A DNA stretch of 32,000 nucleotides from Halomicrobium mukohataei DSM 12286 (GTDB taxonomy: Archaea; Halobacteriota; Halobacteria; Halobacteriales; Haloarculaceae): NCBI RefSeq assembly GCF_000023965.1, contig NC_013202.1, forward strand, positions 2,400,001 through 2,432,000. The letters are read 5' to 3'. Below are positions 3,534-31,485 of the stretch, one piece after another; the stretch's first letter is position 1, and each line of letters opens with the position of its first letter. The notes beneath the pieces are model-generated. The model did not search any database. It was given only the letters and a program-made list of their open reading frames with translations, and was not told the DNA's origin. The translations under genes were made by a program, and so were the position numbers.

Positions 3534-3611
3534 TACTGCCGGCTGTCCGTCTGTACAGACCGTTGCGACCCCGTGGTCACGACTCTCTCGAAACGGTGAC
3601 AGCCGGCAGTA
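3534..3611. mobile_element. Family-A 78-bp palindromic MITE-like element, copy A1 (diverged)
   Basis: TACTGCCGGCTGT...ACAGCCGGCAGTA termini with an inner hairpin. Flanks are CCA / TCA. The right flank TCA is the TGA stop of the Nudix-like gene on the minus strand. Confidence 0.75.
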
Positions 3612-4109
3612 TCAGTCCAGGAATACGTCCGTCCCCGGAATCACGTCGGCATCTGCGGGCAGTTCGTCGAACCACTCGACCGCGTGGACCGGTTCGCCTG
3701 CCGGTTCCACGGCAGTGAGATCGTACGCTCCCGACATGGGGACGCCGCCGAAGGTGACGAATCCCCGCGTTGCGGTCCGTTCGCCGCCGTCCGTTTCGAC
3801 GGTGACCTGCCAGACGCCTTCGATCGTCGCCCGAACGTGATCGACGATCGCAGTCGTGAACGCCTCGTCCGGTGTCACGCTTTCGACGGGGATCTTCCAC
3901 GAGCAGGTGTCCGTTTGCTGTCGGAGGAGGAGCTCGCCCGCTGGGTTCGTGATGCCCACGCAAGCGAGATCTGGGAGGTCTCTCATCCGGTCGACGACTG
4001 CCCGGTCGACGACGTCTCGCTGCTCGTGATACGGCACTGGATCGTCCGCAGAGAGGCGCTCGTAGTCGACGATCGGTTCGATCTCCGGAGATGGGGTGTC
4101 TGTCGTCAT
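3612..4109 (-). CDS. Hypothetical protein, Nudix-fold-like with a degenerate Nudix box
   Basis: 165 aa, acidic. The segment WKIPVESVTPDEAFTTAIVDHVRATIEGV aligns loosely to GX5EX7REUXEEXGU, but the catalytic Glu residues are not conserved. It is bracketed by elements A1 and A2. Confidence 0.5.
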   Translation of the reverse strand: MTTDTPSPEIEPIVDYERLSADDPVPYHEQRDVVDRAVVDRMRDLPDLACVGITNPAGELLLRQQTDTCSWKIPVESVTPDEAFTTAIVDHVRATIEGVWQVTVETDGGERTATRGFVTFGGVPMSGAYDLTAVEPAGEPVHAVEWFDELPADADVIPGTDVFLD

Positions 4110-4196: not shown

Positions 4197-4274
4197 TACT
4201 GCCGGCTGTAAGTCTGTACAGAATTTCGCGACCACGAGGTCGCGAATATCTTGAAACAGTTACAGCCGGCAGTA
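4197..4274. mobile_element. Family-A element, copy A2
   Basis: TACTGCCGGCTGTAAGTCTGTACAGAATTTCGCGACCACGAGGTCGCGAATATCTTGAAACAGTTACAGCCGGCAGTA. Perfect TGA direct repeats flank it at 4194..4196 and 4275..4277. Confidence 0.85.
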
Positions 4275-4835: not shown

Positions 4836-4919
4836 GGTCAGTACAGTAGCGAGTCAAGAGGCCAGTACAGTAGCGAGTCGAGAGGCCAGTACAGTAGCGA
4901 GTCGAGAGGCCAGTACAGA
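4836..4919. repeat. 24-bp tandem repeat, about 3.5 units (GGCCAGTACAGTAGCGAGTCGAGA)
   Basis: Units at 4836, 4860 and 4884, plus a partial unit at 4908. Units 2 and 3 are identical and unit 1 has 2 mismatches. The period of 24 is divisible by 3. Confidence 0.9.
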
Positions 4920-5032: not shown

Positions 5033-5109
5033 TACTGCCGGCTGTACGTCTGTGGAGAGTTTCGCGACCCCGTGTCGCGAATACGTTGAAACAGTGATAG
5101 CTGGCAGTA
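5033..5109. mobile_element. Family-A element, copy A3 (77 bp)
   Basis: TACTGCCGGCTGTACGTCTGTGGAGAGTTTCGCGACCCCGTGTCGCGAATACGTTGAAACAGTGATAGCTGGCAGTA. Flanks are TCA / TCG. Confidence 0.8.
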
Positions 5110-5165: not shown

Positions 5166-5243
5166 TACCGCCGGCTGTACGTCTGTATAGAATTTCGCGA
5201 CCCCGTGGTCGCGAATATCTTGTAACAGTTACAGCCGGCAGTA
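5166..5243. mobile_element. Family-A element, copy A4
   Basis: About 6 mismatches to A2 over 78 bp by hand alignment. Flanks are TGA / CGA. Confidence 0.85.
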
Positions 5244-5309: not shown

Positions 5310-7193
5310 TCACTCTTCGCTCTCTTCTTGCGTGCGCGTCGTCTGTGACGGTCCGCCGGAGAAGACGAACTCGTGTTCGGCTTCCGTCTCGAAGCGGTCG
5401 AGGATGTCCCCGAGCGGTCGAGCGTACCGTTTCAGCTGTTCGGCGCGCGAGGATACTTCGTTGAGTTCGGCGGCCTGTTCCTCCGCGGCACCGGCGACGG
5501 TCTCGGACTCGGACATCATCTGCTCGCTGGTGTCTGCGGCCTCCTGCAGCTGGGTCGCGACGGTGCGGAACTGGGTGAGCGAGTCGCCGAGGTCGACTGC
5601 TTGCTGCTCCGCTTCGAGGGCTTCGAGCGTCTCGACCAGTTCGTCGAGATCCTCGGAGATCGTCTGTAGCTGGTCTTTCTGCTCGTAGGCGTCGTCGGAG
5701 ATCTTCTGGATGGACTCGGCGACCTGTTCGGAGGCGTCACGGACAGACTCGGCACTTTGCAGCACCACGTCACCGGATTCCGCGACCTCTTCGGAGAAGC
5801 TCTTGAGCTGGCCGGTCGTCTTCTCCAACTCCTCGATCATGGCGTTGAACTCGCTCGCGATCGTGTCCATCGCTTCGTTCTCGCCGTCCTGCTCCATTCG
5901 CGTGGTCATGTCCCCGCCTGCGGTCTTCTCCATGGCGACGGAGAACTCGGTGGCTTTCTCCTGGAGGTAGTTGCTCATCTCCATTGCTTCCGCGCGCGAG
6001 ACCTCGGCCTCTTTGCGTGCGCGCTCGGCTTCGTCGATCTGCTCTCTGAGCGCGTCGCGCATGTCGGCGAAGCCGTCGTACAGCCGACCGATGTTGTCGA
6101 TCCGTGACGTGTCCAGTTCGACGTCGAGATTGCCCTCCCGCATCTCTTCGGTCTTCCGGGTGAGCGTATCGATCGACGACGAGGTGCTCCAGCCGAGGGC
6201 CGCACCGATACCGCCGATGAAGACGACCAGACCGGCCGTCGCGATCAGGCCGTACAGCTGCACGTCCTCGACGAAGCCAAACACCGTCGAGGACGGTGCG
6301 TGGGTCAGGACGACCCAGTCAGTCCCAGAGACCGGCGCGTAGCCGACTGTGTACTCCTCGTTCAGTCCGAGGTCGGCGTTCGGTGCCATCGTCGTCTTGA
6401 CGCTGGCACTCTCCTGTGTGCCCCGCAGGGCGTTCGCGTCGTCGACCGTCTGCTGGACGGGGTACGTCGACAGCGTCATCCCCTCTCGGTCGCTGTTGCT
6501 GGCGTAGGCCTGGTCGACGACGACCGTGCGGTGGCTGTCGACGACCTGTGTGAATCGCGCGGACTCGTCTTCGGCCGGACTGATCGAGTCGGCGAGTTCG
6601 TCGAGCCGGTACTCGACGACCAGGATGCGGTTCTGGGAGGCCGGCACCGGGCTGGCGAACCCGATGGTCGATTCGCTGTCCTGGCTGTCGCGGTAGGCGT
6701 CGGAGACGAGTACCCGACTGGTGTCGCTGAGCTCCGTCTCGGACGTCCACTGGAGGTTCCCGGACAACGCCGACGAGTCCGCACGGAGGCTCGTACTGGC
6801 GACGACGGACGATCCCGACGGCGTCGTCTCCAGCAGGTGGACGTTCTTGGCGTCGGCCGACAGCCGCGACAGCTCGTTTTGGAGAGCGAGTTCGAGATCT
6901 GCCTCGTCGTCACCCCACTGGTCCTGATTGGAGATGAGCTTCGTCGACAGCTTGTTCTGCGTGACCCACTGCTCGACGATGTCACTCTGCTGGACGGCCG
7001 TGTTCTGGAACTGTCCTTCGACGTTGTCCTGTGTCTGGGTCCGGACCTCTTCGGTCGCCGCGAACCCGATGATGCCGACCGACAGCCCCATCACCAGCAG
7101 GACGAGCCCGAACTTCAGTGCGAAGCTCCGCCTGAGGAAGTTGGGCGTGATCTTCTGGAGAATACCTTCGGAAGACGACTCTGTGTCGCTCAT
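5310..7193 (-). CDS. Membrane-bound Htr/MCP-like transducer with two TM helices, a large extracellular domain, HAMP modules and a shortened signalling domain
   Basis: 627 aa. TM1 is FALKFGLVLLVMGLSVGIIGFAA. An extracytoplasmic region of about 275 aa follows, then TM2 LYGLIATAGLVVFIGGIGAALGW. HAMP-like segments and methylation-helix-like heptads (SIQKISDDAYEQKDQL, AEEQAAELNEVS) are present. The QTNxLALNAxIEAAR tip motif is absent. Confidence 0.8.
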   Translation of the reverse strand: MSDTESSSEGILQKITPNFLRRSFALKFGLVLLVMGLSVGIIGFAATEEVRTQTQDNVEGQFQNTAVQQSDIVEQWVTQNKLSTKLISNQDQWGDDEADLELALQNELSRLSADAKNVHLLETTPSGSSVVASTSLRADSSALSGNLQWTSETELSDTSRVLVSDAYRDSQDSESTIGFASPVPASQNRILVVEYRLDELADSISPAEDESARFTQVVDSHRTVVVDQAYASNSDREGMTLSTYPVQQTVDDANALRGTQESASVKTTMAPNADLGLNEEYTVGYAPVSGTDWVVLTHAPSSTVFGFVEDVQLYGLIATAGLVVFIGGIGAALGWSTSSSIDTLTRKTEEMREGNLDVELDTSRIDNIGRLYDGFADMRDALREQIDEAERARKEAEVSRAEAMEMSNYLQEKATEFSVAMEKTAGGDMTTRMEQDGENEAMDTIASEFNAMIEELEKTTGQLKSFSEEVAESGDVVLQSAESVRDASEQVAESIQKISDDAYEQKDQLQTISEDLDELVETLEALEAEQQAVDLGDSLTQFRTVATQLQEAADTSEQMMSESETVAGAAEEQAAELNEVSSRAEQLKRYARPLGDILDRFETEAEHEFVFSGGPSQTTRTQEESEE

Positions 7194-12706: not shown

Positions 12707-13474
12707 TTACAGTGCGTGATACAGCCCGGCCGCGAGGAGCGCTCCGATGATCGGACCGACGATAGGCACCCAAGAATACGCCCAGTCCGACGAGCCCTTG
12801 TGTGGAAACGGGAGGACCGCGTGTGCGATACGCGGTCCGAAGTCGCGTGCAGGATTGATCGCATAGCCGGTCGGGCCACCCAGAGAGAGCCCGATTCCGA
12901 GCACGACCAGTGCGACCGGAAGCGCTGACAGCGCGCCGAGACCGAATCCGACCTCTTGACCGTCGATCGTGATCGTTCGGAGGAACTCACCGGAAGCGCC
13001 GTCCAAGAATCCGGCGGAGTTCAGATACAACACCCCGAAGACCAGCACGAACGTACCGATGACCTCGGTCAGCATGTTTGCCCGATAGTTTCGGATTTCG
13101 GGACTCGTCGAGAAGATAGCGAGCTTCACGTCTTCGTCTTCCGTCGCGGCAAAGTGATCCTTGTACGCCAGCCAGACCACCACACCACCCAGGAACGCCC
13201 CGAGCGTTTGAGCGGCGATGTAGATCGGGACCTGTGCCCAGTCGAACAATCCGGCCGCAGCCAGTCCGATCGTCACGGCGGGATTGATGTGACCGCCGCT
13301 GACCTGACTGATCGTGAACACGCCCATGAACACACCGATAGCCCATCCCCACGTGATGACGATCCAACCGCTTTCGTGCCCTTTCGTCTCGTTGAGGACG
13401 ACGTTAGCGACGACACCGCCACCGAAGATGATGAGGATCGCAGTACCGATGGCTTCCGCGATGTACGGATTCAT
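12707..13474 (-). CDS. glpF: Aquaglyceroporin / glycerol uptake facilitator (MIP family)
   Basis: 255 aa with two NPA boxes (HINPAVTIG, AINPARDFG). It starts 3 nt after the glpK stop. Confidence 0.9.
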   Translation of the reverse strand: MNPYIAEAIGTAILIIFGGGVVANVVLNETKGHESGWIVITWGWAIGVFMGVFTISQVSGGHINPAVTIGLAAAGLFDWAQVPIYIAAQTLGAFLGGVVVWLAYKDHFAATEDEDVKLAIFSTSPEIRNYRANMLTEVIGTFVLVFGVLYLNSAGFLDGASGEFLRTITIDGQEVGFGLGALSALPVALVVLGIGLSLGGPTGYAINPARDFGPRIAHAVLPFPHKGSSDWAYSWVPIVGPIIGALLAAGLYHAL

Positions 13475-13477
13475 CGG

Positions 13478-15010
13478 TTACTCTTCATGTGCCCAGTCTC
13501 GGGACCGCTCGACGGCGTCGTCCCAGCGTCCGTACATCTTGTCCGCCTGCTCCGGTGCCATCTCGGGCTGGAAGTTGCGATCGACCTGCCAGTTGTCCCG
13601 CAGCTCGTCGATCGTGTCCCAGTAGCCGACGGCGAGGCCGGCGGCGTAGGCCGAGCCGAGCGCGGTCGTCTCGTCGACTTCCGGACGGGAGATCTCCGTC
13701 TGGATGATGTCGGACTGGAGCTGACAGAGGAAGTTGTTCTTGACGGCCCCACCGTCGACGCGCAGCGTCGTCGTCTCGACGCCGGAGTCGGCTTCCATCG
13801 CTTCGGCGATGTCTCGGGTCTGGTACGCGATAGATTCGAGCGTCGCACGGACGATGTGCTCTTTCCGGGTCCCGCGGGTCATACCGACGATCGTCCCGCG
13901 TGCGCGTCCGTCCCAGTGTGGCGCGCCGAGCCCGGTGAAGGCCGGCACCATGTACACGCCGTCCGTCGACTCGACCGAGCGGGCCAGCTCTGCGGTCTGT
14001 GCGGCGTTCTTGATGAGGTCGACGTCTTCGAGCCACTCGATCGCCGCACCCGTGATGAAGATCGACCCCTCCAGTGCGTACTGGACCGGTTCGCCGGACA
14101 TCTGGAAGCCGATCGTGGTGAGGAGTCCGTGATCGGACTCGACGGCCTCTTCGCCGGTGTTCATGAGGTAGAACGAGCCCGTGCCGTAGGTGTTCTTCGC
14201 GTCGCCGGCATCGAAGCAGGTTTGACCGAACAGGGCGGCCTGCTGATCGCCCAGGGCACCGGCGACGGGGACTTCGGCACCGAGGAAGCCGTCGGGGTCG
14301 GTGGTTCCGTACGTCGCCTCGTCGGAGGACGGGCGCACCTCGGGCAGCATCGATTCGGGGATGTCGAACTCTTCGAGGAGTTCCGCGTCCCACGACAGCC
14401 CCTCGATGTCGTAGAGCATCGTCCGAGAGGCGTTGGTCACGTCGGTGATGTGGTTGCCCGTGAGGTTGTAGATCAGCCACGAGTCGATCGTCCCCATCAG
14501 GAGTTCCCCGTCGCGGGCACGCTCACGGAGGTCACGCGTGCGGGCACTCTCCAGCTTGAGGGGTTCGGCGTTGTCCAGGATCCACTCGGTCTTTGTCGCC
14601 GAGAAGTAGGCGTCGGCCTCCAGCCCGGTCTTCTCGCGGATCATCTCGATCTTGCCGGCTTCTTCCAGCTCCTCGACGCGGTCGGTCGTCCGTCGGTCCT
14701 GCCACACCAGCGCGTTGTGTATCGGCCGCCCGGTCTCTCTGTCCCACACGATCGTGGTCTCTCGCTGGTTCGTGATCCCGATCGCCTCGAGCTGGGTGGC
14801 ATCGAGGTCGGCGGCGTCGAGGCCAGCGGTGACGACGGCCTTCGTGTTCTCCCAGATCTCGGTCGGATCGTGTTCGACCCAACCGGGTTTCGGATAGATC
14901 TGTTCGTGCTGTTCGTACGAGTTGGCGACGACGTTGCCGCTGTGGTCGAACACCATGAAGCGGGTGCCCGTCGTCCCCTGATCGATCGCACCGACGTATG
15001 TGTCTGGCAT
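13478..15010 (-). CDS. glpK: Glycerol kinase (FGGY family)
   Basis: 510 aa. YVGAIDQGTTGTRFMVFD...GWVEHDP...ITNQRETT...GDQQAALFGQ are canonical GlpK motifs. Confidence 0.95.
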   Translation of the reverse strand: MPDTYVGAIDQGTTGTRFMVFDHSGNVVANSYEQHEQIYPKPGWVEHDPTEIWENTKAVVTAGLDAADLDATQLEAIGITNQRETTIVWDRETGRPIHNALVWQDRRTTDRVEELEEAGKIEMIREKTGLEADAYFSATKTEWILDNAEPLKLESARTRDLRERARDGELLMGTIDSWLIYNLTGNHITDVTNASRTMLYDIEGLSWDAELLEEFDIPESMLPEVRPSSDEATYGTTDPDGFLGAEVPVAGALGDQQAALFGQTCFDAGDAKNTYGTGSFYLMNTGEEAVESDHGLLTTIGFQMSGEPVQYALEGSIFITGAAIEWLEDVDLIKNAAQTAELARSVESTDGVYMVPAFTGLGAPHWDGRARGTIVGMTRGTRKEHIVRATLESIAYQTRDIAEAMEADSGVETTTLRVDGGAVKNNFLCQLQSDIIQTEISRPEVDETTALGSAYAAGLAVGYWDTIDELRDNWQVDRNFQPEMAPEQADKMYGRWDDAVERSRDWAHEE

Positions 15011-15135
15011 CGTTGTGTACTCCGTGGGGCGGAACTTTATCTACCGTTCCACCCTACCGATAAACAACATAGGCGATCATTATAAATGTTACTGGCGCTG
15101 TCGAACCGTCAGTAAATCATCCGCAGAAACGACCG

Positions 15136-17688
15136 CTACTGGTACGAGTCGAGCGTCGCTGCGATCTGCTCGTCGATCGATTCCAGCGTCTCGGCCGTCG
15201 AGTCTGTGGTATCCAGCCGTTCGACGCCCTCCTCGATAATCGTCCGAACCGTGTCGAACGGGCCGATCTGCGCCCCACGGGTCCCGATCGTGTCGGTCGT
15301 TTCCATCAGCTGGTCCAGCGCCGTCGCGTAGTGGGTGTTCTCCTCGAACCAGCCCGCCGCCCGTAGTTCCGGAATCGCCCCTTCGTGAACCGGGAAGTAG
15401 CCGGTCTCGCGGTGCCAGCGCTGCTGTTGTGCGGGCTGGGTGAGCCAGGTCAGGAACTCGCTGACCGCGTCGTGGACGGCCGTCGAGTGGTCGTCCCCGA
15501 CCCACAGCGACGCCCCGCCGACCAGCACGCCCGTCCTGTCGTCGAGCACCGGGAATCGTCCCGTCTCGACCGGGAACGCCGCGCCCGACTCGATCTCCGT
15601 CAGCGAGGAGGTCGATCCGATGAGCATCGCGGCGTCTCCGTCGTGGAACGCGGTTCTGGCAGCGCCTCGTGCCTCGATGCCGGGGTCGTAGTGATACCCC
15701 GATTCGGACATGTCGCGCCACCACTCGAACAGCGACTGGCCGAACGAACCGCTGAGGTTCGCCGTCGTCGGCCGTCCGGCGCGTCCGTTGTCGTTGTCGA
15801 CCAACGGCTCGTCCGCCTCCGCGAACCACTGTTCGACGAACCACGAGTAGTTCGCGAACGTGATGCCGTACTCGGAGACGCCAGCGTCGACGATGCGCTC
15901 GGAGGCGTCACGAACCGCCGAGAGCGTCTCCGGCGGCCGGTCGGGATCGAGCCCCGCGCGCTCGAACGCGTCGCGGTTGTACACCAGGACCGGATTCGAG
16001 GCGTTGAACGGGAGCGAGTGCAACGTCCCGTCGAACCGGTAGTAGTTCGCCACGGGATCGAGGAGCGAGTCGACGTGTTCCTGAGAGAGCAGCCGTTCGA
16101 CCGGCACGAACTGGCCGCTGTCGCGCGCTCGCGTGGTCCCGATCTCGAAGATCTGGGCGATCGCCGGCGGCGATCCGTTCTCGGCCGCCGTCAGTGCCGC
16201 GTCGAGGGTCCCGCGATAGCTCCCCTTCGACGACAGCGAGATCACGACGCCGTCTGTCTGGGCCTCGAACTCGCGGGCCAGTTCCTCCAGCAACAGCCCC
16301 TTCTCGCCGCCCATCGCGTGCCAGAACTCCACGACGGTCGCGTCTTCGTCCGCGGTCTCGTCGGCGAGTTCGTAGTCGTCGAACGTCGATTCGAGCGTCC
16401 CAGCCCGCTCGGACAGCGTCGAGACGCGCGTCGACACCTCGGCCAGCTCGGTCGTCTGTGTCCGGGCTGCCGTCGCCGCGACCTCGGCGTCGGAGGCCGT
16501 GTCGTCACTGATGTCGCCGACGGCGTTGACCATCGACACGATCTCCTGGGTGGACTCCGCCTGACTGTCGGTGGCCTCGTCGATCTCCTGGATGCTCGTG
16601 TCGATCTCCTCGACCTGTCCGACGACGCGTTCGAGACCGTCGGTCACCGATTCGACGGTGTCGTGTGTCCGGTCGACGCTCTCGCTCGTCTCGTGGACGG
16701 TCTCGACGGTCGCTTCGGCCTGTTCGTGGACTCGGTCGATGGAGTCCTCGATCTCCGCCGTCGCTCGCTTCGTCTCGCTGGCGAGCTCTTTGACCTCGCT
16801 GGCCACGACGCCAAAGCCCTCGCCGTCCTCGCCCACGCGGGCGGCCTCGATGTTCGCGTTCAGCGCGAGAACGTTGGTCTGGTCGGCAACGTCGGTGATG
16901 AACTCGACGATGTCTTCGATCTCGGTCAGGAGGTCGTTGAGCCGCTCTATCTGCTCGACGGTTTCCGAGGAGCGCGCCGCGAGGCGTTCGAGTTCGGTCC
17001 TCGCCTCCGTCGCCGAGGACCGGGCCTGATCGCCCTGGGCCGCGGCGTCGCCGGTCGCCGTCGCGACCTCGTTGGCCGAGGCCGCGATCTCCTCGATCGT
17101 CGCCGAGAGGGCCTCCATCTCGTCGGCGATGTCGTTGATCCGCTCGTTCTGTCGGCGGGAGCCCGACGAGATGCCGTCGACCGCGTCGCTCACCTCGCGG
17201 CTCGCACCTTTCACGGAGTCGAGACGCTCGTCGACCTGCTCGGTCGACGACGCCACCTGCCCGCCGAACACGGAGACCGTCTCGACGGTGTCGCGCCACT
17301 CGGCGAGGAGATCCCGGTACGCACTGTACAGCTCCGAGACCGCCGCTACGTCGGCGCCTCCGGGCGTCTCCGTCAGGTCTCCCTCGGCGTTGGCCGCGAC
17401 CACCGAACTCAGGTCCTCGATCGCGCGCTCCAGCGTCTCCGCTCGTTCGCGTTCCGCTGTCAGGGTCTCCCGGACCCGTTCGCGGTCCTCGATGGCTTCG
17501 TCACGCTCCGCGCGTGCCTGGGAGAGTTGCCGTTCGAGCTCCTGTCTCGTTCGTGCCTGCTCGTCCTCTCCGACCGCCTCGCCGCCGTCCGAGCGCGTCT
17601 CCGCTTCGGTCGAACTCGTCGATCGCCAGTCAAACATCGGTAACGCGCCTCCCGATCGTGCTGAACATACGATACGTGCCAGATCCAT
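15136..17688 (-). CDS. Soluble MCP/Htr signalling protein fused to a C-terminal UgpB-like (family-1 solute-binding, sn-glycerol-3-phosphate type) domain
   Basis: 850 aa. The N-terminal half is coiled coil plus an MCP domain with an intact tip ([38 protein letters not shown]). The C-terminal 401 aa (nt 15139..16341) align by eye to E. coli UgpB: [57 protein letters not shown] and [11 protein letters not shown] see no hydrophobic helix or signal peptide. The alternative start ATG 17637 (MFDWRS) is preceded by GGGAGG. Confidence 0.85.
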
Positions 17689-17944
17689 ACCGTACGTATA
17701 TAATAGTTATTGGTGGATGTATAAGGTAGATAAAGATGCTGCATCGGTGTCTAAAGCGGTGATACAGCCCGATTTTCAGGATAGCTGTCCCAGTCGGCAG
17801 CGCCGAGCGCCAGTGCGACAGTCGGCGTCGGCGAGCATCGTCCTCGTGACGCGCCGAAATCGTGTTAACGATCACTAGTTTTACTGTCGGTGTCCGTTCG
17901 TCGGTGAAGTAAAGTGGGTGGCGACCTAACGACTCCGAGTATAG

Positions 17945-19663
17945 ATGGCATCGACACCACGAATCGTCGTCGTCGGAGGTGGCTCGACCGGCGCGGGCGT
18001 CGCGCGAGACCTCGCGATGCGCGGGGCCGACGTGACCCTCGTCGAGCAGGGGAACCTCACACACGGCACGACGGGGCGCATGCACGGACTGCTCCACAGC
18101 GGCGGCCGGTACGCGGTCTCCGACCAGAAGAGCGCACGCGAGTGTATCGAAGAGAATCGCGTGTTACGCGACATCGCGAGCCACTGCGTCGAGATGACCG
18201 GTGGCATGTTCGTCAAGCGTCCGGAAGACTCCGAATCGTACTTCGAAGAGAAACTACAGGGGTGTGCCGACTGCGACATCCCCGCGGAGGTGATCTCGGG
18301 CGAACGCGCACGCGAACGCGAGCCCCACCTCGCGACGGACGTCGACAAGGCGATCTCCGTCCCCGACGGCGCGGTCGATCCGTTCCGGCTCGTCGTCGCC
18401 AACGCCGCCAGCGCACAGGAACACGGTGCCCGGATCGAGACCCACTCGAAGGTCACCGATCTGCTCGTCGAGAGCGGCGAGATCGTCGGCGTCGAGGTCG
18501 AACACGGGGCCAAGTCCGGCGATCGCGTCCACGGCGTCCAGTCGGGTCGAGAGACGATCCGGGCCGACCACGTCGTCAACGCGACCGGCGCGTGGGCCGG
18601 CCGGATCGGCGACATGGCCGACCTCGACGTGGCCGTACGGCCCTCGAAGGGCGTCATGACGATCATGAACGTCCGGCAGGTCGACACCGTCATCAACCGC
18701 TGTCGGCCCAAGGGCGACGCGGACATCATCGTTCCTCACGAGACGACGGCGATACTGGGGACGACCGACGAGGAGGTCGAGGACCCGGAGGACTACCCCG
18801 AAGAGCAGTGGGAGGTCGACCAGATGATCGAGACGCTCTCGGAACTGGTGCCGATGCTCGCCGACGCGCGCTCGATCCGGTCGTTCTGGGGCGTGCGCCC
18901 GCTGTACGAACCGCCGGAAGTGGGCAGCGAAGATCCGACCGACATCACGCGGGACTACTTCCTGCTGGACCACGAGGAACGCGACGGCCTGCCGGGCATG
19001 ACGACCATCGTCGGCGGGAAGTTCACGACCTACCGGATGATGGGCGAGGAGATCGCCGACCACGTCGTCTCCAAGTTCGGGATGGACGCCGACTGCCGGA
19101 CCGCGGACGTGCCGCTGCCCGGTAGCGAGGAGTTTTCGGTGCTGCGAGACTACATGGACGAGTTCGGCCTGCGCTCGCCGATCGGCCGGCGCAGCGTCGA
19201 GCGACTGGGATCGCGGGCCGAGGAGGTGCTCGGCACCGGCGAGCCGAACCCGGTGCTGTGCAACTGCGAGGGCGTCACGCGCGCGGAAGTACGGGACGCG
19301 ATCTCCCAGGCCGGCGCGGACCTCAACGGGACCCGCATCCGGACCCGAGCGTCGATGGGCAACTGCCAGGGCGGCTTCTGCATCCATCGTCTGGCCGGCG
19401 AGCTCCACCCCGAGTTCGACGAGGCGACGGTTCGAGACTCCTGGGACGACCTGCTACAGGAACGGTGGAAGGGACAGCGCCACGCCCTCTGGGGGAACCA
19501 GCTCCAGCAGGCGATGATCAACTACGCGCTGCACGCGACGACGCAGAACCGCGACCACGACCCGGCGACCCAGCCCGTCGACTTCGCCGCCTTCGACAGC
19601 GGACCGGGCTCGGATCGTCGCCTGGGGTCGGACACCGTCGGGGAGGCCGCAGATGGCGATTGA
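17945..19663 (+). CDS. glpA: Anaerobic-type glycerol-3-phosphate dehydrogenase subunit A
   Basis: 572 aa. The FAD fold is [29 protein letters not shown]-terminal BFD-like 2Fe-2S segment reads [11 protein letters not shown]...CQGGFC. Confidence 0.9.
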
Positions 19664-20921
19664 TTCGGAGGTGCTGGTCGTCGGCGGCGGGCTCGCGGGC
19701 GTGACGAGCGCGGTCGCGGCCGCCCGCGCGGGTGCGGACGTGCGCCTGGTCTCCTACAAGCAGAGCTCGCTCCGGCAGGCCTCCGGGCTGATCGACGTGC
19801 TCGGCTACGTCGGCGACGAGGTCGTCGTCGATCCGTACGACGCGATTCCGGAGCTCCACGAAGACCACCCCTACCGTCTCGTGGGCGTCGAGACGGTTCG
19901 GGACGCGATGGCGCTGTTCGACGAGACCGTCGACGGCTACCACGGCGACCACACCGAGACCAACGCACTGCTCCCGACCCACGGCGGGACGGTCAAGCCG
20001 ACCGCGCGCTACCCCGCCGGAGCCGCCGAGGGCGTCGCCAGCGACGACCGGGACACGCTCCTTGTCGGCTTCGAGCGGCTGGTCGACTTCGACGCACCGC
20101 TCGCCGCGAGTCACGTCGAGGCCGCGGGCGCGCCGTTCTCGGCCGACGGCGTGACGATCACGTTCCCGGGAGATCTCCAGGCCGACGCCAAGGTCACTCG
20201 GTACGCGAAGCTGCTCGACCAGAACAGTCCCGTCGCAGTCGACGGCCAGAAGGTCGACACCCGGACCGCGCTCGCCGAACGGATCGCCCCCCACCTCGAC
20301 GGCCACGAACGCGTCGGCTTCCCGGCGGTGCTGGGCGACGATCACACCGACGCGGTGCGGGCGACGCTGGCCGAGGAGCTCGGGGTGGCCGTCTTCGAAG
20401 TCCCGATGGGGCCGCCCTCGCTGCCGGGACTGCGCCTCGAAGACCGTCTCTTCGAGGCGCTCGACCGGTCCGGCACGCGCTACGAGGTCGGCAACCCCGT
20501 CGTCGACTACGAGGGCGAGGATCGGATCGAACGCGTGGTCGTCGAACGGAACGGCTCTCGGGTCCCCTACAGCGCCGACCAGTACGTCCTCGCGACGGGC
20601 GGGCTGGTCAGCAAGGGCGTCGAGAGCGACCGCGAGGGCGTTCGAGAGCCGATCTTCGACTGTCACGTCCCACATCCGAAAGACCGGTACGACTGGTTCG
20701 AAGACGGCGTGTTCGACGACCACGCGTTCGCGCGCTTCGGCGTCGACGTTGGGAGCGACTTGCGGCCACGTGCGGCCGGCGGAAGCGTGGAGTTCGAGAA
20801 CCTCAGAGCGGCTGGGGCGACGATCGGCGGCTACGACTTCGCGGCCGAGAAGTCCGGCAGCGGCGTCTCGATCGCGACCGGCTACGCGGCCGGGAGAGCG
20901 GCGACGGAGGATCTGACATGA
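19653..20921 (+). CDS. glpB: Glycerol-3-phosphate dehydrogenase subunit B
   Basis: 422 aa. It has the dinucleotide fold [15 protein letters not shown]. It overlaps the glpA stop and its own stop overlaps the glpC start. Confidence 0.85.
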
Positions 20922-22303
20922 GTGATTCAGCTGACACACCGACGGAGGAGTCGTTCGAACCGACGGAACCGAACACGGGCGAGGAGTTCGAGCCGGTCCA
21001 GGTGTTCCCCGACGAGGAGACGATGGACCTGCGGCCCGGCGCGGACTCCTGTACGAAGTGTAGTACCTGCGATACGAACTGTCCGGTCGCGGAAGTCGAC
21101 GACGAGTTCCCGGGGCCGAAGTTCCAGGGACCGGAGCAGTGGCGACTCAAGCAGACCGACGACGGCGACGAGTTCGCCATCGACGACTCCATCATGGACT
21201 GCTCGAACTGCATGCGCTGTGACGACGCCTGTCCCTCGGGTGTCCCGCTCAGCCAGATGCACAACGAGGCCCGCGGCGAGTACGTCGACGAGCAGATGAG
21301 CAAGCTCTCGACGGAGTACTGGCGCAACCGGATCCTCGCCAACTACCGCACGTCCGCGTGGCTGGCGAGCAAGGTCCCCCGGATCGCCAACGTCGCGATG
21401 AACTTCGGGCCGGCTCGCTGGGTCATGGAGAAGACCCTCGGTGTCACGAGCGAGCGGGAGTTCCCCGCCTTCGCGACGGAGACGTTCTCCGAGTGGTGGG
21501 CCGCCCAGGGCGGCGCTGCCGGTTCCCGCGAGCGCGCTCGCGACGCCCGCGAACGCCGCGGCGAACCCCTCGACGCCGACAAGAAGGTCGCGTACTTCCA
21601 CGGCTGTTACTCCGAGTACAACACCCCCGAGGTCGCGCGGGCCCTCGTTCGCGTGTACGAGCACTTCGGCTACGAGATCGTCGTGCCCGAGCAGGGCTGT
21701 TCGGGAACGCCGATGTTCGCAAACGGGATGCTCGACGACGCCCGCCGCCACGCCGAGGTCAACGTCTCTTCGATGGCCGATCTGGTCGAGGAGGGGTACG
21801 ACGCCATCGCCTCCTGTACGTCGTGCTCGCTGGCGCTGCGACAGGAGTATCCCGAGCTGTTCGACATCGACGGCATCGAAGACGTGGCCGAGAACACCTT
21901 CGAGTCCATCGAGTACCTCCGGATCCACGAAGACGTGCGCGGTGCGCTCCAGGACGCCGAGATCGGGGACGAACTCGCCGAAGAGTTCGCCTACCACGCG
22001 CCGTGTCACGCCCGCAACCAGGGGCTCGAACGGCAGGCCGTCGAGCTGTTCCGCGATCTCGACGGCGTCGCAGTCGAGGACGTGGGCGACTCCTGTTCGG
22101 GCATCTCGGGCACCTACGGCTGGAAAGACGAGAAGTACGAGAAGTCGATGGCCATCGGTGAAGAGATGTTCGACCACATGGAGGACGTCGAGAGCACCAC
22201 CGGTATGACCGAGTGTCCCACCTGCTCGATGCAGATGGAACACGGTACTGGCTACGACATCCGACACCCGATCGAGCTGGTCGCGGCGGCGCTGGTCGAG
22301 TGA
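20918..22303 (+). CDS. glpC: Glycerol-3-phosphate dehydrogenase subunit C (Fe-S / CCG-domain protein)
   Basis: 461 aa. Two ferredoxin-type clusters are present (CTKCSTCDTNCP, CSNCMRCDDACP), plus two Cys-rich CCG-like repeats. The stop TGA 22301..22303 doubles as the left target duplication of element B1. Confidence 0.9.
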   Translation: MSDSADTPTEESFEPTEPNTGEEFEPVQVFPDEETMDLRPGADSCTKCSTCDTNCPVAEVDDEFPGPKFQGPEQWRLKQTDDGDEFAIDDSIMDCSNCMRCDDACPSGVPLSQMHNEARGEYVDEQMSKLSTEYWRNRILANYRTSAWLASKVPRIANVAMNFGPARWVMEKTLGVTSEREFPAFATETFSEWWAAQGGAAGSRERARDARERRGEPLDADKKVAYFHGCYSEYNTPEVARALVRVYEHFGYEIVVPEQGCSGTPMFANGMLDDARRHAEVNVSSMADLVEEGYDAIASCTSCSLALRQEYPELFDIDGIEDVAENTFESIEYLRIHEDVRGALQDAEIGDELAEEFAYHAPCHARNQGLERQAVELFRDLDGVAVEDVGDSCSGISGTYGWKDEKYEKSMAIGEEMFDHMEDVESTTGMTECPTCSMQMEHGTGYDIRHPIELVAAALVE

Positions 22304-22383
22304 TACGGACGGTTGTCGGCGTTTACCCAGTCGACCGCACGACGGCGTACGGTCGATCTGGTAACGACCTACAACTTTCCGTA
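22304..22383. mobile_element. Family-B 80-bp palindromic MITE-like element, copy B1
   Basis: TACGGACGGTTGTCGGCGTTTACCCAGTCGACCGCACGACGGCGTACGGTCGATCTGGTAACGACCTACAACTTTCCGTA. Perfect TGA / TGA flanks. Confidence 0.85.
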
Positions 22384-22392
22384 TGAGACGGC

Positions 22393-22398
22393 AAAAAA
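22393..22398 (-). terminator. Oligo-T tract (T6 on the minus strand) after the B2 hairpin; candidate usp terminator
   Basis: The plus strand reads caaaaaag. On the minus strand this is a U-run just downstream of the usp stop and the B2 hairpin. Oligo-U tracts are the known archaeal termination signal. Confidence 0.35.
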
Positions 22399-22419
22399 GC
22401 GAGACGACGCCCGGCCTCA

Positions 22420-22498
22420 TACGGATTATTGTAGCGATTTACCGGAGATCGTCTACTCCGTGGCGACGATCACCGGTAAGCAACTACAATAAACCGTA
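22420..22498. mobile_element. Family-B-related 79-bp hairpin element, copy B2 (same termini, different interior)
   Basis: TACGGATTATTGTAGCGATTTACCGGAGATCGTC...GACGATCACCGGTAAGCAACTACAATAAACCGTA forms a near-perfect hairpin. Flanks are perfect TCA / TCA within C..G. The right TCA is the usp stop codon. Confidence 0.8.
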
Positions 22499-22951
22499 TC
22501 AGTGGTCGCCCCGGACGAAAGTCACCGGGCACGGCGATTCGAGCAGGACGTGCTGGGCCGTCGACCCGAACACGGCCTTGCCGGTCGGTGACCGACGGCG
22601 ACCGCCGACGATCAGGTGATCGGCCCCTTCCTCGGTCGCGAGGTCGACGATCCGTGCGCCGTGTTCGCCGATCCGACCGGTGATCCGGTAGTCGATCTTC
22701 GCGTCCTCCAGCGAGTCCTTGACCTCACGGACGATCGAGAGTCGGCTCGTCACCTCGTCGACGTCCGCGTCGGCCGGATCGCTGAAGTCGAGTCGTTCGG
22801 TCGCGTTGTCGTACTCTTCTGGGGTGAACACGTGAGACAGGATCACCGACGCGCCGGTGGCTCCGGCGATGTCGATGACCGTCTCGGTGAGTTCGTCGAT
22901 GCGTTCGCTGTCGGTGTGTCCGAGTGCCAGCATGACTGTCTCTATCGCCAT
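22499..22951 (-). CDS. Universal stress protein (UspA family)
   Basis: The start is internal ATG 22951 of track ORF 22499..23140: MAIETVMLALGHTDSE...GADHLIVGGRRRSPTGKAVFGSTAQHVLLESPCPVTFV. A TATA (TTTTTGTA on the minus strand, 22974..22981) lies about 27 nt upstream. Confidence 0.85.
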   Translation of the reverse strand: MAIETVMLALGHTDSERIDELTETVIDIAGATGASVILSHVFTPEEYDNATERLDFSDPADADVDEVTSRLSIVREVKDSLEDAKIDYRITGRIGEHGARIVDLATEEGADHLIVGGRRRSPTGKAVFGSTAQHVLLESPCPVTFVRGDH

Positions 22952-23191: not shown

Positions 23192-24832
23192 CTACTGTCG
23201 TCGCCGGCCCACGAGTGCCACACCGAGCGCGACGACCGTGAGAGCCAGGTAGACGACCGGGATCCCCGCCGACGCCGTCGACGGCCGGGCGGCGACGTAA
23301 TCGAGCGCGCCGAGTCCGTTGACGGGGCCGAGGTACCACGCCGTCAGATAGGCGATCTCGAAGCTCTTGGATCGCCCGGTCCAGACGCCCAGCGCGAGCG
23401 CGATCGCCGGCAACGACAGGACGGCCGCGAGCCAGCCCGCGAGCGCACCGTCCATCCCGGAGAGGGCGAACCGGACGGGTGCGGGCACGGACACCAACAG
23501 CCCGATCGCGACGCCGGACGCGTAGGTCGCGCCCAAGAGCCGGATCGGTCTGCTGCCGACGAACACCAGCTCTGTCGTCCGGTATCGCCGTTCGCGCGTC
23601 CCGAGTGCCGACCACGCCGAGAGCGGGAGCAAGAGCGCGATCGGGACGACCAGCGTGCGGACGACACCGATCGGCGCGACGGCAGTCGCGAGAACGGCCA
23701 GCGCGGCCGCAGCGTACCACCACCGAGGGTAGCCACGAACCGCCATCCGGAGTTCGGCCAGCAAGACGGGGACGGGCGAGCCGCCGTCGCGGCTGACGGG
23801 TGCGAGGTCGACATCGACCGACGAATCCGCCGTCGTCGACGGTTCGACCTCGTCGTCCGCGGTCTCTCGATCGGACTCCGAGCGAGAGAGGAACGACCAG
23901 CGCGTCGAGTCGTCGAACCGGTCGAACGCGAGCCAGGCCCCTCCGAGGAATCCACACGCGGCGGCGAGTACCGGGAGACGGGCCACGAGCCGCGGCCCGG
24001 TCCAGGCGATCCCGTCCCACGTGAACTCGGCGAGACCGCCCGGATCGTCCGTGTAGGTGAAGCCGAAGACCGACCCGTCGAAGGCGGGATACTGGGCCGC
24101 GATCGACTGGACCATGCTGTCGCGGACGACCGCGAGTCCGACGAGATCCAGCGGCGCGTCCGGTGCGATCCCGGCTACGATGGCGGTCAGCGCGAGCAGG
24201 AAGTAGATCACGGTACCAGCAGTGCCACGGAGCGGTCCGATCGTCTCGAAACAGACCGCGACCGCCGCGACGACGGCCATGGCCGGGATCGTGATCAGGA
24301 GGAACGGCGAGACCAACGCCCAGGGGTCGAACGCGCCCACGCCGACGAAGAGCGAGGCGACGCCGGTCGAAGCGAGCAGGACCAGCGTCCCGAACGCGAG
24401 GACGGCGACGTTGCTCAGCCACTTCCCCAGGAGGTACTGGCCGTTCGACAGCGACGAGGGCGCGATCAGTTCGCTCACCCCCGTCTCCAGGTCCCTGCCG
24501 ATGCTGCCTTTCACGAGGGAGAATCCGAAGAGGACGAGCACCGTCGTGCCGATGACGGCCGTCATCCCAGCGAGCCAGGCGATCGTCGGGCGGCCGGTGT
24601 AGTCGGTGCCGACCACCAGCGTCGAATCGACGGTGACGATCTTCACGAAGTACGCGACCAACAGCGGCACGACGAGGAACTTCGTCGAGCGCGACCGCTC
24701 TCTGAGGTCCGCCAGTGCCACGGCGACGACCGGTCTGATACTGCCGGCTGTAACTGTTTCGAGATATTCGCGAACCCGTGGTCGCGAAATTTCGTGCAGA
24801 CTTACAGCCGGCAGTATGAGTGGCCCGGTCAT
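23192..24832 (-). CDS. ABC-2-type transporter permease (large, multi-TM) carrying an in-frame family-A element near its 5' end
   Basis: The start ATG 24832 overlaps the ATPase stop (ATGA). The protein is long and hydrophobic (LVVPLLVAYFV, GMTAVIGTTVLVLFGF, VAVLAFGTLVLLA...). Codons 6-32 are encoded by element A5. Confidence 0.75.
   Translation of the reverse strand: MTGPLILPAVSLHEISRPRVREYLETVTAGSIRPVVAVALADLRERSRSTKFLVVPLLVAYFVKIVTVDSTLVVGTDYTGRPTIAWLAGMTAVIGTTVLVLFGFSLVKGSIGRDLETGVSELIAPSSLSNGQYLLGKWLSNVAVLAFGTLVLLASTGVASLFVGVGAFDPWALVSPFLLITIPAMAVVAAVAVCFETIGPLRGTAGTVIYFLLALTAIVAGIAPDAPLDLVGLAVVRDSMVQSIAAQYPAFDGSVFGFTYTDDPGGLAEFTWDGIAWTGPRLVARLPVLAAACGFLGGAWLAFDRFDDSTRWSFLSRSESDRETADDEVEPSTTADSSVDVDLAPVSRDGGSPVPVLLAELRMAVRGYPRWWYAAAALAVLATAVAPIGVVRTLVVPIALLLPLSAWSALGTRERRYRTTELVFVGSRPIRLLGATYASGVAIGLLVSVPAPVRFALSGMDGALAGWLAAVLSLPAIALALGVWTGRSKSFEIAYLTAWYLGPVNGLGALDYVAARPSTASAGIPVVYLALTVVALGVALVGRRRQ
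24739..24816. mobile_element. Family-A element, copy A5, inverted relative to A1-A4, inside the permease CDS
   Basis: About 6 mismatches to the reverse complement of A2 over 78 bp. Perfect TGA / TGA duplications lie at 24736..24738 and 24817..24819 within C..G (CTGAG target). Confidence 0.85.
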
Positions 24833-29668: not shown

Positions 29669-31223
29669 GCACGGTCCCCAGCGGTGGGTGGGTGACTGGA
29701 GCGCACGCAGGCGGGCGCTGTCGCCCGACCGGATCGGACTGGTCGACGCGACCAGCGGCGCGGAGTACACCTACAGACAACTCGACCGCCGCGCCAACGG
29801 CTGTGCCCGCTTGCTGGCCGATCACGGCGTGACCCGCGAGGGCGGGGCAGATCCGGACGCGGGCGGCCGCGTCGCCGTACTCTCACGAAACCGTCCCGAG
29901 TTCGTCGATCTGTTCTTCGCGACTGGCAAGACCGGCGGCGTGCTCGCGCCGCTCTCCCATCGCCTGGCACCGCCGGAACTCGGGACGCTGCTCGACGACG
30001 TTGCCCCGTCGCTACTCGTCGTCGAGGAGCCCTTCGCCGACGACGCGGCCGAGGCCCTCGCCGACGCCGACATCGACTGTCCGGTGCGCTCGCTGGCGAC
30101 GGCGGGCGAGACGACCTGGGACCGCCTCGACGAATCGCTGCCGACCGACCGATCCCCCTACGACGGACCGACGCTGGAGCCGGCAGACCCACACCTGTTC
30201 TTGCACACCGGCGGCTCGACGGGGACCCCCAAAGAGACCGTCGTCAGCCACGAGGCGATCGTCTGGAACGCGACCAACACCGTCACCGCCTGGGGGCTGC
30301 GACCGGACGACGTGACGCCGCTGACGTTCCCGATGTTCCACACCGGCGGGTGGAACGTGTTGACGGTCCCGGTCTTTCACATGGGCGGGACCGTCGTCCT
30401 CGCCCGAGAGTTCGATCCCGGTGAGGTGCTCGAACTGATCGAGGCGCGGTCGGCCACGCTCCTCGTCGCCGTCCCGGCGGTGTTGCGGATGATGGTCGAC
30501 CACGATCGATGGGCCGAAACCGACCTCTCGACGCTGCGACTCGCCAAGTCCGGCGGCGGCCCCTGCCGAGAGTCGGTGCTGTCGGCGTGGTGGGACCGCG
30601 GCGTCGACCTCTCACAGGGGTACGGGCTGACCGAGTGTGGCCCCAACAACTTCGCGATGCCCGACGACTGGCCCAGAGAGAAGGCCGACACAGTCGGCGT
30701 CCCGAACGTCCACGTCGACGTGCGGATCGTCGACGACACCGGTGTGGAGCTGCCCCGCGGTGAGGTCGGTGAGCTCCATCTCCGGTCGCCCCACGCGGCG
30801 ACGGAGTACTGGCACCGGCCGGAGGAAACCGCCGCGACGTTCCGTGACGACGGCTGGCTCGCGACCGGCGACCTCGCGCGAATCGACGACGACGGCTACG
30901 TCAGTATCGAGGGCCGCAAGAAGAACATGTACATCAGCGGCGGCGAGAACGTCTTCCCCGCGGAAGTCGAGGACGCCGTCTCCGCCCATCCGAAGGTCGA
31001 GGACGCCGTCGTCGTGCCCGTCGACGACGACCAGTGGGGCGAGGTCGGTCGCGCCGTCGTCGTCGGCGACGACTCGCTCACGCTCGACGAACTCGCGTCC
31101 TTTCTGGACGGCCGACTCGCGCGGTACAAGCGGCCGAGAGACCTCGTCTTCGTCTCTGCGCTTCCCCGCAGCGGTCCGGACAAGATCGACCGCGACGCGG
31201 TCGCTGACGAGTACGGTTGCTGA
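29661..31223 (+). CDS. Acyl-CoA synthetase / AMP-dependent ligase (ANL superfamily)
   Basis: 520 aa. The AMP-binding motif is LHTGGSTGTPKETVVSH. Also present are GYGLTE, TGDLARIDDDGY and the C-terminal lysine region SGPDKIDR. Confidence 0.85.
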   Translation: MSEHGPQRWVGDWSARRRALSPDRIGLVDATSGAEYTYRQLDRRANGCARLLADHGVTREGGADPDAGGRVAVLSRNRPEFVDLFFATGKTGGVLAPLSHRLAPPELGTLLDDVAPSLLVVEEPFADDAAEALADADIDCPVRSLATAGETTWDRLDESLPTDRSPYDGPTLEPADPHLFLHTGGSTGTPKETVVSHEAIVWNATNTVTAWGLRPDDVTPLTFPMFHTGGWNVLTVPVFHMGGTVVLAREFDPGEVLELIEARSATLLVAVPAVLRMMVDHDRWAETDLSTLRLAKSGGGPCRESVLSAWWDRGVDLSQGYGLTECGPNNFAMPDDWPREKADTVGVPNVHVDVRIVDDTGVELPRGEVGELHLRSPHAATEYWHRPEETAATFRDDGWLATGDLARIDDDGYVSIEGRKKNMYISGGENVFPAEVEDAVSAHPKVEDAVVVPVDDDQWGEVGRAVVVGDDSLTLDELASFLDGRLARYKRPRDLVFVSALPRSGPDKIDRDAVADEYGC

Positions 31224-31382
31224 TACCGTCGGCTCTCATACGGACGGTTGTAGGCGTTTACCCAGTCGACCGCACGACAGCGTGCGGTCGATCTGGTAAA
31301 GACCTACAACTTTCCGTATCAGTCTGTGATGAACGGGCCACCGCCGGACGGCGACCGTCGTGGGACGGTGGGGGTCGGCAGT
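31224..31382. mobile_element. Possible degenerate family-A element (A6) interrupted by B3
   Basis: After removing B3 and one TCA, about 77 bp remain: TACCGTCGGCTCTCAGTCTGT...GTCGGCAGTA. By hand alignment 18/23 positions at the left end and 10/11 at the right end match family A. The interior is diverged. The element begins right after the acs TGA stop. Confidence 0.3.
31239..31318. mobile_element. Family-B element, copy B3
   Basis: 4 differences from B1 over 80 bp. Perfect TCA / TCA flanks at 31236..31238 and 31319..31321 within C..G. Confidence 0.85.
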
Positions 31383-31485
31383 ACGGTCCGGCGACGGTAT
31401 CAACGCAGTAACACCTCCCTACTACCTTCGAGGGCGGAATTGTTTATCATGGTCTAGCGTGTGGAATAGGGCGGAAGGTCGTCGC

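Follow-up and report, generated by a model that had tools for sequence, protein, structure and literature searches.

Two hairpin elements between glpC and usp of Halomicrobium mukohataei belong to a MITE superfamily of Halobacteria that is frequent at stop codons

Results

Two back-to-back elements use the stop codons of glpC and usp as target duplications

We analysed a 32-kb stretch of the Halomicrobium mukohataei DSM 12286 genome (NC_013202.1, positions 2,400,001 to 2,432,000; this whole stretch is called the window below), in which two short hairpin elements, B1 and B2, lie back to back between the convergent genes glpC and usp. These elements are copies of a superfamily of non-autonomous DNA transposons, namely MITEs (short for miniature inverted-repeat transposable elements), which spans the class Halobacteria. 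Both are flanked by a duplicated triplet, and the gene-side copy of this triplet is the stop codon of the adjacent gene. The features of the site are as follows (window coordinates; strand is not applicable where none is given):

20918..22303, + strand: glpC, the last gene of glpABC, 461 aa (Pfam CCG and Fer4; identical protein on CP045142.1)
22301..22303, + strand: TGA, left target duplication of B1 and stop codon of glpC (sequence, gene call)
22304..22383: B1, family-B hairpin MITE, 80 nt, TAC..GTA (terminal pattern, fold)
22384..22386: TGA, right target duplication of B1 (sequence)
22387..22416: ancestral glpC-usp spacer, 30 nt (sequence)
22417..22419: TCA, left target duplication of B2 (sequence)
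22420..22498: B2, hairpin MITE of a second B subfamily, 79 nt (fold, z -7.7)
22499..22501, - strand: TCA, right target duplication of B2, read on the minus strand as the usp stop codon TGA (sequence, gene call)
22499..22951, - strand: usp, universal stress protein gene, convergent with glpC (Pfam Usp; gene call on CP045142.1)

Over the 195 nt from stop to stop, the order is TGA, B1, TGA, the 30-nt spacer, TCA, B2 and TCA. A first-pass annotation of the window had described this arrangement, including the TGA/TGA and TCA/TCA flanks and the identity of the gene-side triplets with the two stop codons, and its coordinates proved exact. Removing both elements together with one copy of each triplet in silico yields a 30-nt convergent spacer. 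The same glpC-usp arrangement, element-free and with 19 nt between the stops, was found in a metagenomic relative whose GlpC is 84% identical, and another relative with a 95%-identical GlpC is also without an element after glpC. B1 folds with -45.3 kcal/mol (z -5.6) and shows 94% identity to a third family-B copy in the window, B3. Near-identical copies of B2 are present at 30020-30100 and 94582-94662 on a plasmid of H. mukohataei JP60, and the closest copies of the elements generally lie on plasmids of Halomicrobium mukohataei and Halomicrobium sp.

The first-pass annotation had also noted a T6 run that follows B2 on the usp strand. This A6/T6 run (22393-22398) is part of the ancestral spacer and lies outside any element. 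On the minus (usp) strand, the spacer contains a weak stem followed by the T6, which is probably the original usp terminator.

The elements form a superfamily with a 3-bp target duplication

The genome scan used one pattern for the termini of families A and B on a contig collection with one genome per species, and it picks copies with intact termini. The pattern matched in at least 120 stretches, which come from about 35 halobacterial genera. The hosts among the matches listed include Natrinema, Natrialba, Natronococcus, Natrarchaeobius, Natronorubrum, Haloarcula, Halomicrobium, Halovenus, Halorhabdus, Halapricum, Natronomonas, Haloplanus, Halonotius and Halostella, as well as many metagenome-assembled genomes. 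The same pattern gave 0 matches in the viral contigs of IMG/VR. The 136 copies with intact termini are 76-82 nt long and non-coding, and they carry the conserved termini TAC(G/T)G....(C/T)TGTA (pattern ATAC-K-G-....-Y-TGT at both ends), with terminal columns that are invariant in 81 copies. Subfamilies follow taxonomy, and a single 222-kb plasmid (H. mukohataei JP60, NZ_CP039376.1; the JP60 plasmid below) harbours 17 copies.

Identical 3-nt flanks were found in 115 of the 136 copies, comprising 62 TGA, 49 TCA, 3 TTA and 1 TAA (T-S-A in 111). Because the centre base of the triplet differs between copies but is reproduced faithfully on the two sides, the flanks represent a true target duplication rather than part of the inverted repeat. 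Copies located off stop codons still show C at -1 and G at +1 together with a symmetric G(-3)/C(+3), which gives a palindromic target GnC-TSA-GnC and rules out that the C at -1 is an artefact of codon usage. Common ancestry as the source of the stop-codon pattern was likewise ruled out, since 113 of the 115 sites are non-orthologous and independent. The earlier description, in which hairpin elements move and duplicate a 3-bp TSA within a C-TSA-G target, is therefore borne out across the class, and the rebuilding of the stop codon, which leaves the open reading frames (ORFs) intact, extends well beyond the window. In being small and non-coding, with conserved terminal inverted repeats, a fixed-length duplication and dispersed multiple copies that are polymorphic for presence and absence, these elements have the features of MITEs.

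Partial copies were also observed. In one analysed stretch (L031, 3886-3906), a solo right terminus (ACAGCAATCCGTA, then TCA) stands directly after a TAA stop codon and may be what a deletion has left of a copy at the end of a gene. On the JP60 plasmid, the left and right halves of an A-type element (106848-106898 and 118737-118787) share a strand but are separated by 11.9 kb. Each half is flanked by TAA, and they enclose kinase genes and no transposase; this is either one copy that has been split or a large segment with MITE ends at its borders.

Filled and empty sites, nesting and site reuse show that the elements move

On the JP60 plasmid, the stop codon of an ABC substrate-binding gene is occupied by a B copy (gcggTCG[element]TCAgacg), whereas the orthologous site in Halomicrobium sp. 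LC1Hm reads gcagTCAgacg, so this empty site holds the triplet once. A second JP60 copy is also missing from LC1Hm. At the stop of an orthologous GH2 glycosidase gene, a B-type element is present in JP60 and an A-type element in LC1Hm, with the same TCA flanks; similarly, the stop of orthologous genes holds a B element in Natronococcus amylolyticus and an A element in Haloarcula rara. The elements are also nested: one B copy is interrupted by an A copy, B3 itself interrupts an A copy, and another A copy lies at a TCA inside a repeat of a third family (C), of which five intact copies serve as empty sites. Together, the filled and empty sites, the nesting and the independent reuse of one orthologous stop show that these elements move.

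Family C itself is a hairpin repeat of about 86 nt (TATAGTAACAATTGAAACGATTTACACACCGATCGCAC..GTGCGATCGGGTGTGCATTGATTTTCAATGGCTACTATA), whose ends, TATAG..CTATA, suggest a TA-type target. Its sites on the JP60 plasmid are 62861, 106383, 140560, 194609 and 46777(-), and the copy split by the A-type element is in LC1Hm (L137, ~19935-20100). No family-C copy occurs in the window.

The enzyme that mobilises the elements

Families A and B have the same duplication, target and host genomes, insert into each other and have common termini. The terminal likeness noted in the first-pass annotation was confirmed, with a count of 11 of 14 positions rather than about 12 of 15. These common traits fit the mobilisation of both families by one transposase. 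In about 1.2 Mb of loci and plasmids, no longer element with inverted termini 120-6000 bp apart and matching flanks was detected. The only annotated transposases on the JP60 plasmid are an IS1595-family gene and TnpB. An nhmmer search returned 180 full and only 5 partial matches, and BLAST against plasmids gave only MITE-sized matches. The orphan termini are mostly decayed copies, and no transposase domain was found in the ORFs beside the remaining ones.

PIF/Harbinger elements make a 3-bp duplication at TWA. In the IS5 family of insertion sequences (ISs), the IS1031 group inserts at TNA and generates exclusively a 3-bp repeat (PMC12016507), a trait that is present in the elements described here. 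However, the IS1031 group is a lead and not an assignment, because the termini TACGG/TACTG are dissimilar to GAACCTGTC.. of ISLrh, the sole IS1031-group end compared (PMC12016507). A DDE-type cut-and-paste enzyme with IS5/IS1031-like chemistry would be the probable mobiliser.

A different kind of enzyme would be involved if the elements were palindromes like REP/REPIN (repetitive extragenic palindromes) that spread via single-stranded DNA by a single-copy HUH (RAYT-type) or IS200/IS605-type enzyme. The elements are indeed almost fully palindromic, extragenic and often located at 3' ends, their subfamilies track taxonomy, no multicopy transposase partner was found by the above searches, and the JP60 plasmid has a TnpB gene close to a half copy. 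However, REP/REPIN and IS200/IS605 elements make no target duplication, whereas the haloarchaeal elements have a variable middle base in the triplet (G, C, A, T) that is nevertheless copied on both sides in 115 of 136 cases, and the empty LC1Hm site has a single triplet. We therefore consider this explanation very improbable.

Stop codons are over-represented among the landing sites

To quantify the preference for stop codons, the elements were excised in silico and genes were called crudely by GC3 (78% coding), a coverage that inflates the count of 'intergenic' sites. The duplication coincides with the stop codon of a called gene in 55 of the 111 TSA-flanked copies. On the RefSeq-annotated JP60 plasmid, 9 of the 17 copies are on stops, which amounts to 5% of its annotated genes. 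A cruder count, 71 of 136 copies at stops, includes antisense-ORF false positives (e.g., the window copy A2), and the resolved calls and RefSeq annotation were used instead. The other copies, about half, are located off stops, including in an operon spacer (A5) and in divergent intergenic regions. Only 10 copies are intragenic, though about half of the motif weight lies in called genes.

Exact CTSAG sites were occupied at 27 of 93 stops, compared with 18 of 246 other non-coding sites (odds ratio 5.2, p 9e-7) and 2 of 53 sites in convergent spacers (odds ratio 10). When TSA sites were weighted by the motif, the stop share was 54% versus an expected 28% (p 2e-8) with a motif model from non-stop copies only, or 37% with a model from all copies. 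In a local comparison with sites 40-100 nt downstream of the same stop, the observed share was 76-89% versus 63-80% expected (p 0.02-0.11). Enrichment at stops beyond CTSAG frequency, which the first-pass annotation had set as a test, is thus clear against all non-coding CTSAG sites, but marginal against motif-weighted nearby 3' sites.

These results indicate that the target motif and the loss of disruptive insertions explain most of the stop-codon pattern. We consider it likely that the elements are trans-mobilised MITEs with a TSA target within GnC-TSA-GnC, for which stop codons are the best-matching harmless sites. A transposase supplied in trans would make a 3-nt staggered cut at T-S-A within this palindrome, and repair would duplicate TSA on both sides of the element. 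With TGA as the main stop in these GC-rich genomes and genes often ending in ...GAC/GAG-TGA-G, the stop would therefore be the best-matching target where insertion is harmless. The duplication would rebuild the stop and leave the protein unchanged, and the loss of intragenic copies would leave about half of the survivors positioned precisely at stop codons, in this case the glpC and usp stops.

Several observations weigh against this account. Across about 1.2 Mb of haloarchaeal loci and plasmids, among them the whole 222-kb plasmid, no autonomous partner with the same ends was detected. Stops are still about twofold over-represented among all non-coding targets after motif weighting, and the motif alone is therefore not the whole story. 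Moreover, divergent promoter-side spacers show no visible depletion, which weakens an explanation in which only 3' ends tolerate insertion, and the limited gene-call coverage enlarges the 'intergenic' class used for comparison. A modest gene-end bias remains, partly inflated by uncalled genes.

The twofold residual could also mean that the transposase actively targets gene ends through DNA structure, the termination zone or a host factor beyond the ~9-bp motif, so that stops would be hot spots rather than survivors. The independent reuse of identical stop codons by families A and B points in the same direction, as does the lack of clear depletion in promoter-side spacers, which makes selection alone look insufficient. 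On the other hand, when a stop is compared only with the 40-100 nt that follow it, the motif explains almost the entire preference, uncalled genes in the 'intergenic' class can explain part of the residual, and copies are present in every spacer class. Such active targeting thus appears quite improbable.

Pairing of the hairpin is conserved without signs of a function in RNA

B1, B2 and B3 fold as hairpins of about 35 bp (-41 to -56 kcal/mol, z -5.6 to -10), which no shuffle equalled. In 81 oriented B copies, compensatory changes occurred in 22 of 34 pairs, and the number of double-change cells was 316 versus 130±9 in shuffles and 64-123 with the pairing slid. This covariation means that pairing, including that of the variable apical stem, is kept while the sequence diverges. 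The family-wide data thus support selection on the hairpin, which had been proposed before from a comparison of B1 with B3; that comparison itself is not evidence for it. The two copies do differ at 4 positions, but B3 equals the copies of Halomicrobium katesii, so B1 lost pairs and B3 did not regain them.

The first-pass annotation had further suggested that the hairpins act as terminators or mRNA stabilisers. The results lend no support to such a role. The elements are intrinsically oriented (pairwise consistency 2320:35), but their orientation relative to the gene at stop codons is random (B 21:20, A 10:6). In the copies at stop codons, G·U mismatches are about as frequent as A·C mismatches on the mRNA strand (96 versus 97), i.e., there is no purifying signature at the RNA level. 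No T-run exists inside the elements, and archaeal termination depends on oligo-T, not on hairpins. A search of Rfam at gathering and permissive thresholds gave no relevant family. Hence, the elements lack the properties of an intrinsic terminator or an RNA-level 3' untranslated region (3'-UTR) element, and the only terminator-like site is located in the ancestral spacer.

The same data bear on the idea that the elements are 3'-UTR modules retained by the host, in which a post-stop hairpin stabilises mRNA, aids termination or insulates convergent genes and is kept by positive selection. This would agree with the over-representation of stops relative to all non-coding CTSAG sites and to convergent spacers, with the persistence of this excess after motif weighting, with the strong covariation of the hairpin, and with the presence of different families on the same stop in sister strains and in distant genera. 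However, in addition to the random orientation, the balanced mismatches and the missing T-run, the excess over nearby 3' sites is marginal, about half of the copies are elsewhere, and turnover between Halomicrobium strains is fast (of 3 compared copies, 2 are absent and 1 is replaced). We therefore regard host-retained modules as unlikely. Because the three tests of an RNA function were negative, we infer that the palindrome is needed or made by transposition, so that the hairpin serves the element's transposition or arises from its making, rather than serving the host.

Other copies and neighbouring features in the window

A single degenerate terminal pattern for families A and B gave 6 matches in the window versus 0.00 expected. 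Allowing mismatches revealed 2 further copies, giving 8 with recognisable termini in 32 kb, in addition to one decayed copy. Apart from B1 and B2, these are:

3534..3611: A1, family A, right flank TCA (3612-3614) that is the stop of ORF 3612-4109 (-), left flank CCA
4197..4274: A2, family A, TGA/TGA flanks, on the 5' side of ORF 3612-4109, 85 nt upstream of its start
5033..5109: A3, family A, TCA/TCG flanks, right terminus mutated
5166..5243: A4, family A, TGA/CGA flanks, 66 nt from the stop of a HAMP/Cache transducer gene, 5310-7193 (-)
24739..24816: A5, family A, TGA/TGA flanks, in a probable operon spacer bounded by the ABC ATPase stop codon (24829-24831) and by the start (24721) of the minus-strand gene that follows
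31224..31383: A6, decayed A-type copy split by B3, beginning directly after the acyl-CoA synthetase stop TGA (31221-31223)
31239..31318 (strand not applicable): B3, family-B copy, TCA/TCA duplications at 31236-31238 and 31319-31321 (terminal pattern, fold)

Four stop codons are therefore occupied in 32 kb, i.e., those of glpC, usp, the acyl-CoA synthetase gene and ORF 3612-4109. The earlier placement of A1 on a stop codon was right, whereas the label 'Nudix-like' for the gene concerned was rejected, as ORF 3612-4109 has no Nudix or other Pfam/PDB match. The perfect TCA/TCA flanks of B3 were also confirmed; its position, however, had been given simply as 13 nt downstream of the acyl-CoA synthetase stop, and B3 is in fact nested in the decayed A6, which starts at that TGA. 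With B3 excised in silico, the alignment of A6 to A-type copies scores 63.5, compared with 37 for the best shuffle. No further large hairpin family was found in the window.

Small hypothetical ORFs are called across or into elements (window 31217-31411; JP60 plasmid 94428-94628 and 144684-145154) and are annotation artefacts of the repeats. Likewise, short-read assemblies end contigs directly after glpC, which is also a repeat artefact. A 24-nt unit (GGCCAGTACAGTAGCGAGTCGAGA) forms about 3.5 tandem repeats at 4836-4918, in an apparently non-coding stretch between family-A copies. The genes at 12707-22303 make up a complete glycerol-utilisation cluster. Besides glpABC, it comprises genes for a MIP channel, a glycerol kinase with FGGY domains and a transducer that carries a solute-binding domain. 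GlpC homologues carry the name glycerol-3-phosphate dehydrogenase subunit C. A phosphoenolpyruvate carboxylase gene lies downstream of this cluster (gene and Pfam table).

Discussion

In Tn7 (attTn7 downstream of glmS) and group IIC introns (after terminators), insertion past the gene end spares the gene product. Those systems use dedicated recognition proteins or RNA at one or a few sites, whereas the elements described here use a short stop-containing motif at very many dispersed sites. Correia/NEMIS elements of Neisseria and ERIC/YPAL-type MITEs are abundant hairpins of about 100 bp with a fixed short duplication, often co-transcribed with their neighbours, and no autonomous partner is known for them. 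In contrast to the haloarchaeal elements, they duplicate TA, have no relation to stop codons and have documented effects at the RNA level, whereas our tests of selection on RNA were negative for the haloarchaeal elements. REP/BIME and REPIN-RAYT systems are alike in being extragenic palindromes at gene 3' ends and between convergent genes with a long lineage association, but they lack a target duplication and depend on an HUH enzyme, whereas the 3-bp duplication here is clear.

The elements also resemble IS1031-group ISs of the IS5 family with their MITEs and the PIF/Harbinger 'Tourist' MITEs, which have in common the exclusive 3-bp TNA duplication and short non-coding derivatives with terminal inverted repeats. 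The differences are that the ends are TAC.. here and GA(A/G)C.. in the IS1031 type (PMC12016507), that the target is narrowed to T-S-A in GnC-TSA-GnC, that the whole element is one hairpin, and that no cognate transposase was found in our searches. In the same host class, the HqIRS MITEs and SMR-A of Haloquadratum and MITEHsal1-14 of Halobacterium are also transposase-free, outnumber transposons and insert into one another (PMC3119063; PMC7002104). They differ in size and duplication: SMR-A is ~110 bp long without a duplication (PMC3119063), while MITEHsal copies with stated lengths are ~370-410 bp and the duplications reported for MITEHsal2/3 are mostly 7 bp (PMC7002104). None of them has been reported at stop codons (PMC3119063; PMC7002104).

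A 2024 review of prokaryotic MITEs, which covers the Correia/NEMIS/ERIC-type elements, mentions archaeal MITEs only in Sulfolobus, Halobacterium, Haloquadratum, Desulfurococcus and 'several other archaeal genomes', and does not mention stop codons (PMC10969869). A MITE census of the same year gives bulk counts only and describes no family; genomes of Haloarculaceae, Halococcaceae and Halovenus rank top among archaea, and the census probably counted these elements in bulk. We found no prior specific description of these hairpin elements in the literature. We thus rate them as new and uncharacterised as a family, although of the known MITE kind, and notable for their breadth and for the stop codon as a landing site.

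A further scenario, speculative and with only a slim chance of being right, is that of a long-lived class-wide superfamily whose transposase, possibly single-copy or domesticated and cutting C^TSAG, evolved to TGA as a self-repairing safe site, and whose post-stop hairpins at several percent of genes were co-opted as 3'-UTR modules shaping mRNA ends between packed, often convergent genes.

Overall, few archaeal MITE superfamilies seen so far appear to be as widespread as this one. The elements account for assembly breaks and spurious small ORFs at haloarchaeal gene ends. A transposon whose 3-bp duplication includes the stop codon can abut a gene while the protein remains unchanged, and the many natural pairs of sites with and without an element are available for asking what a strong post-stop hairpin does in archaea.

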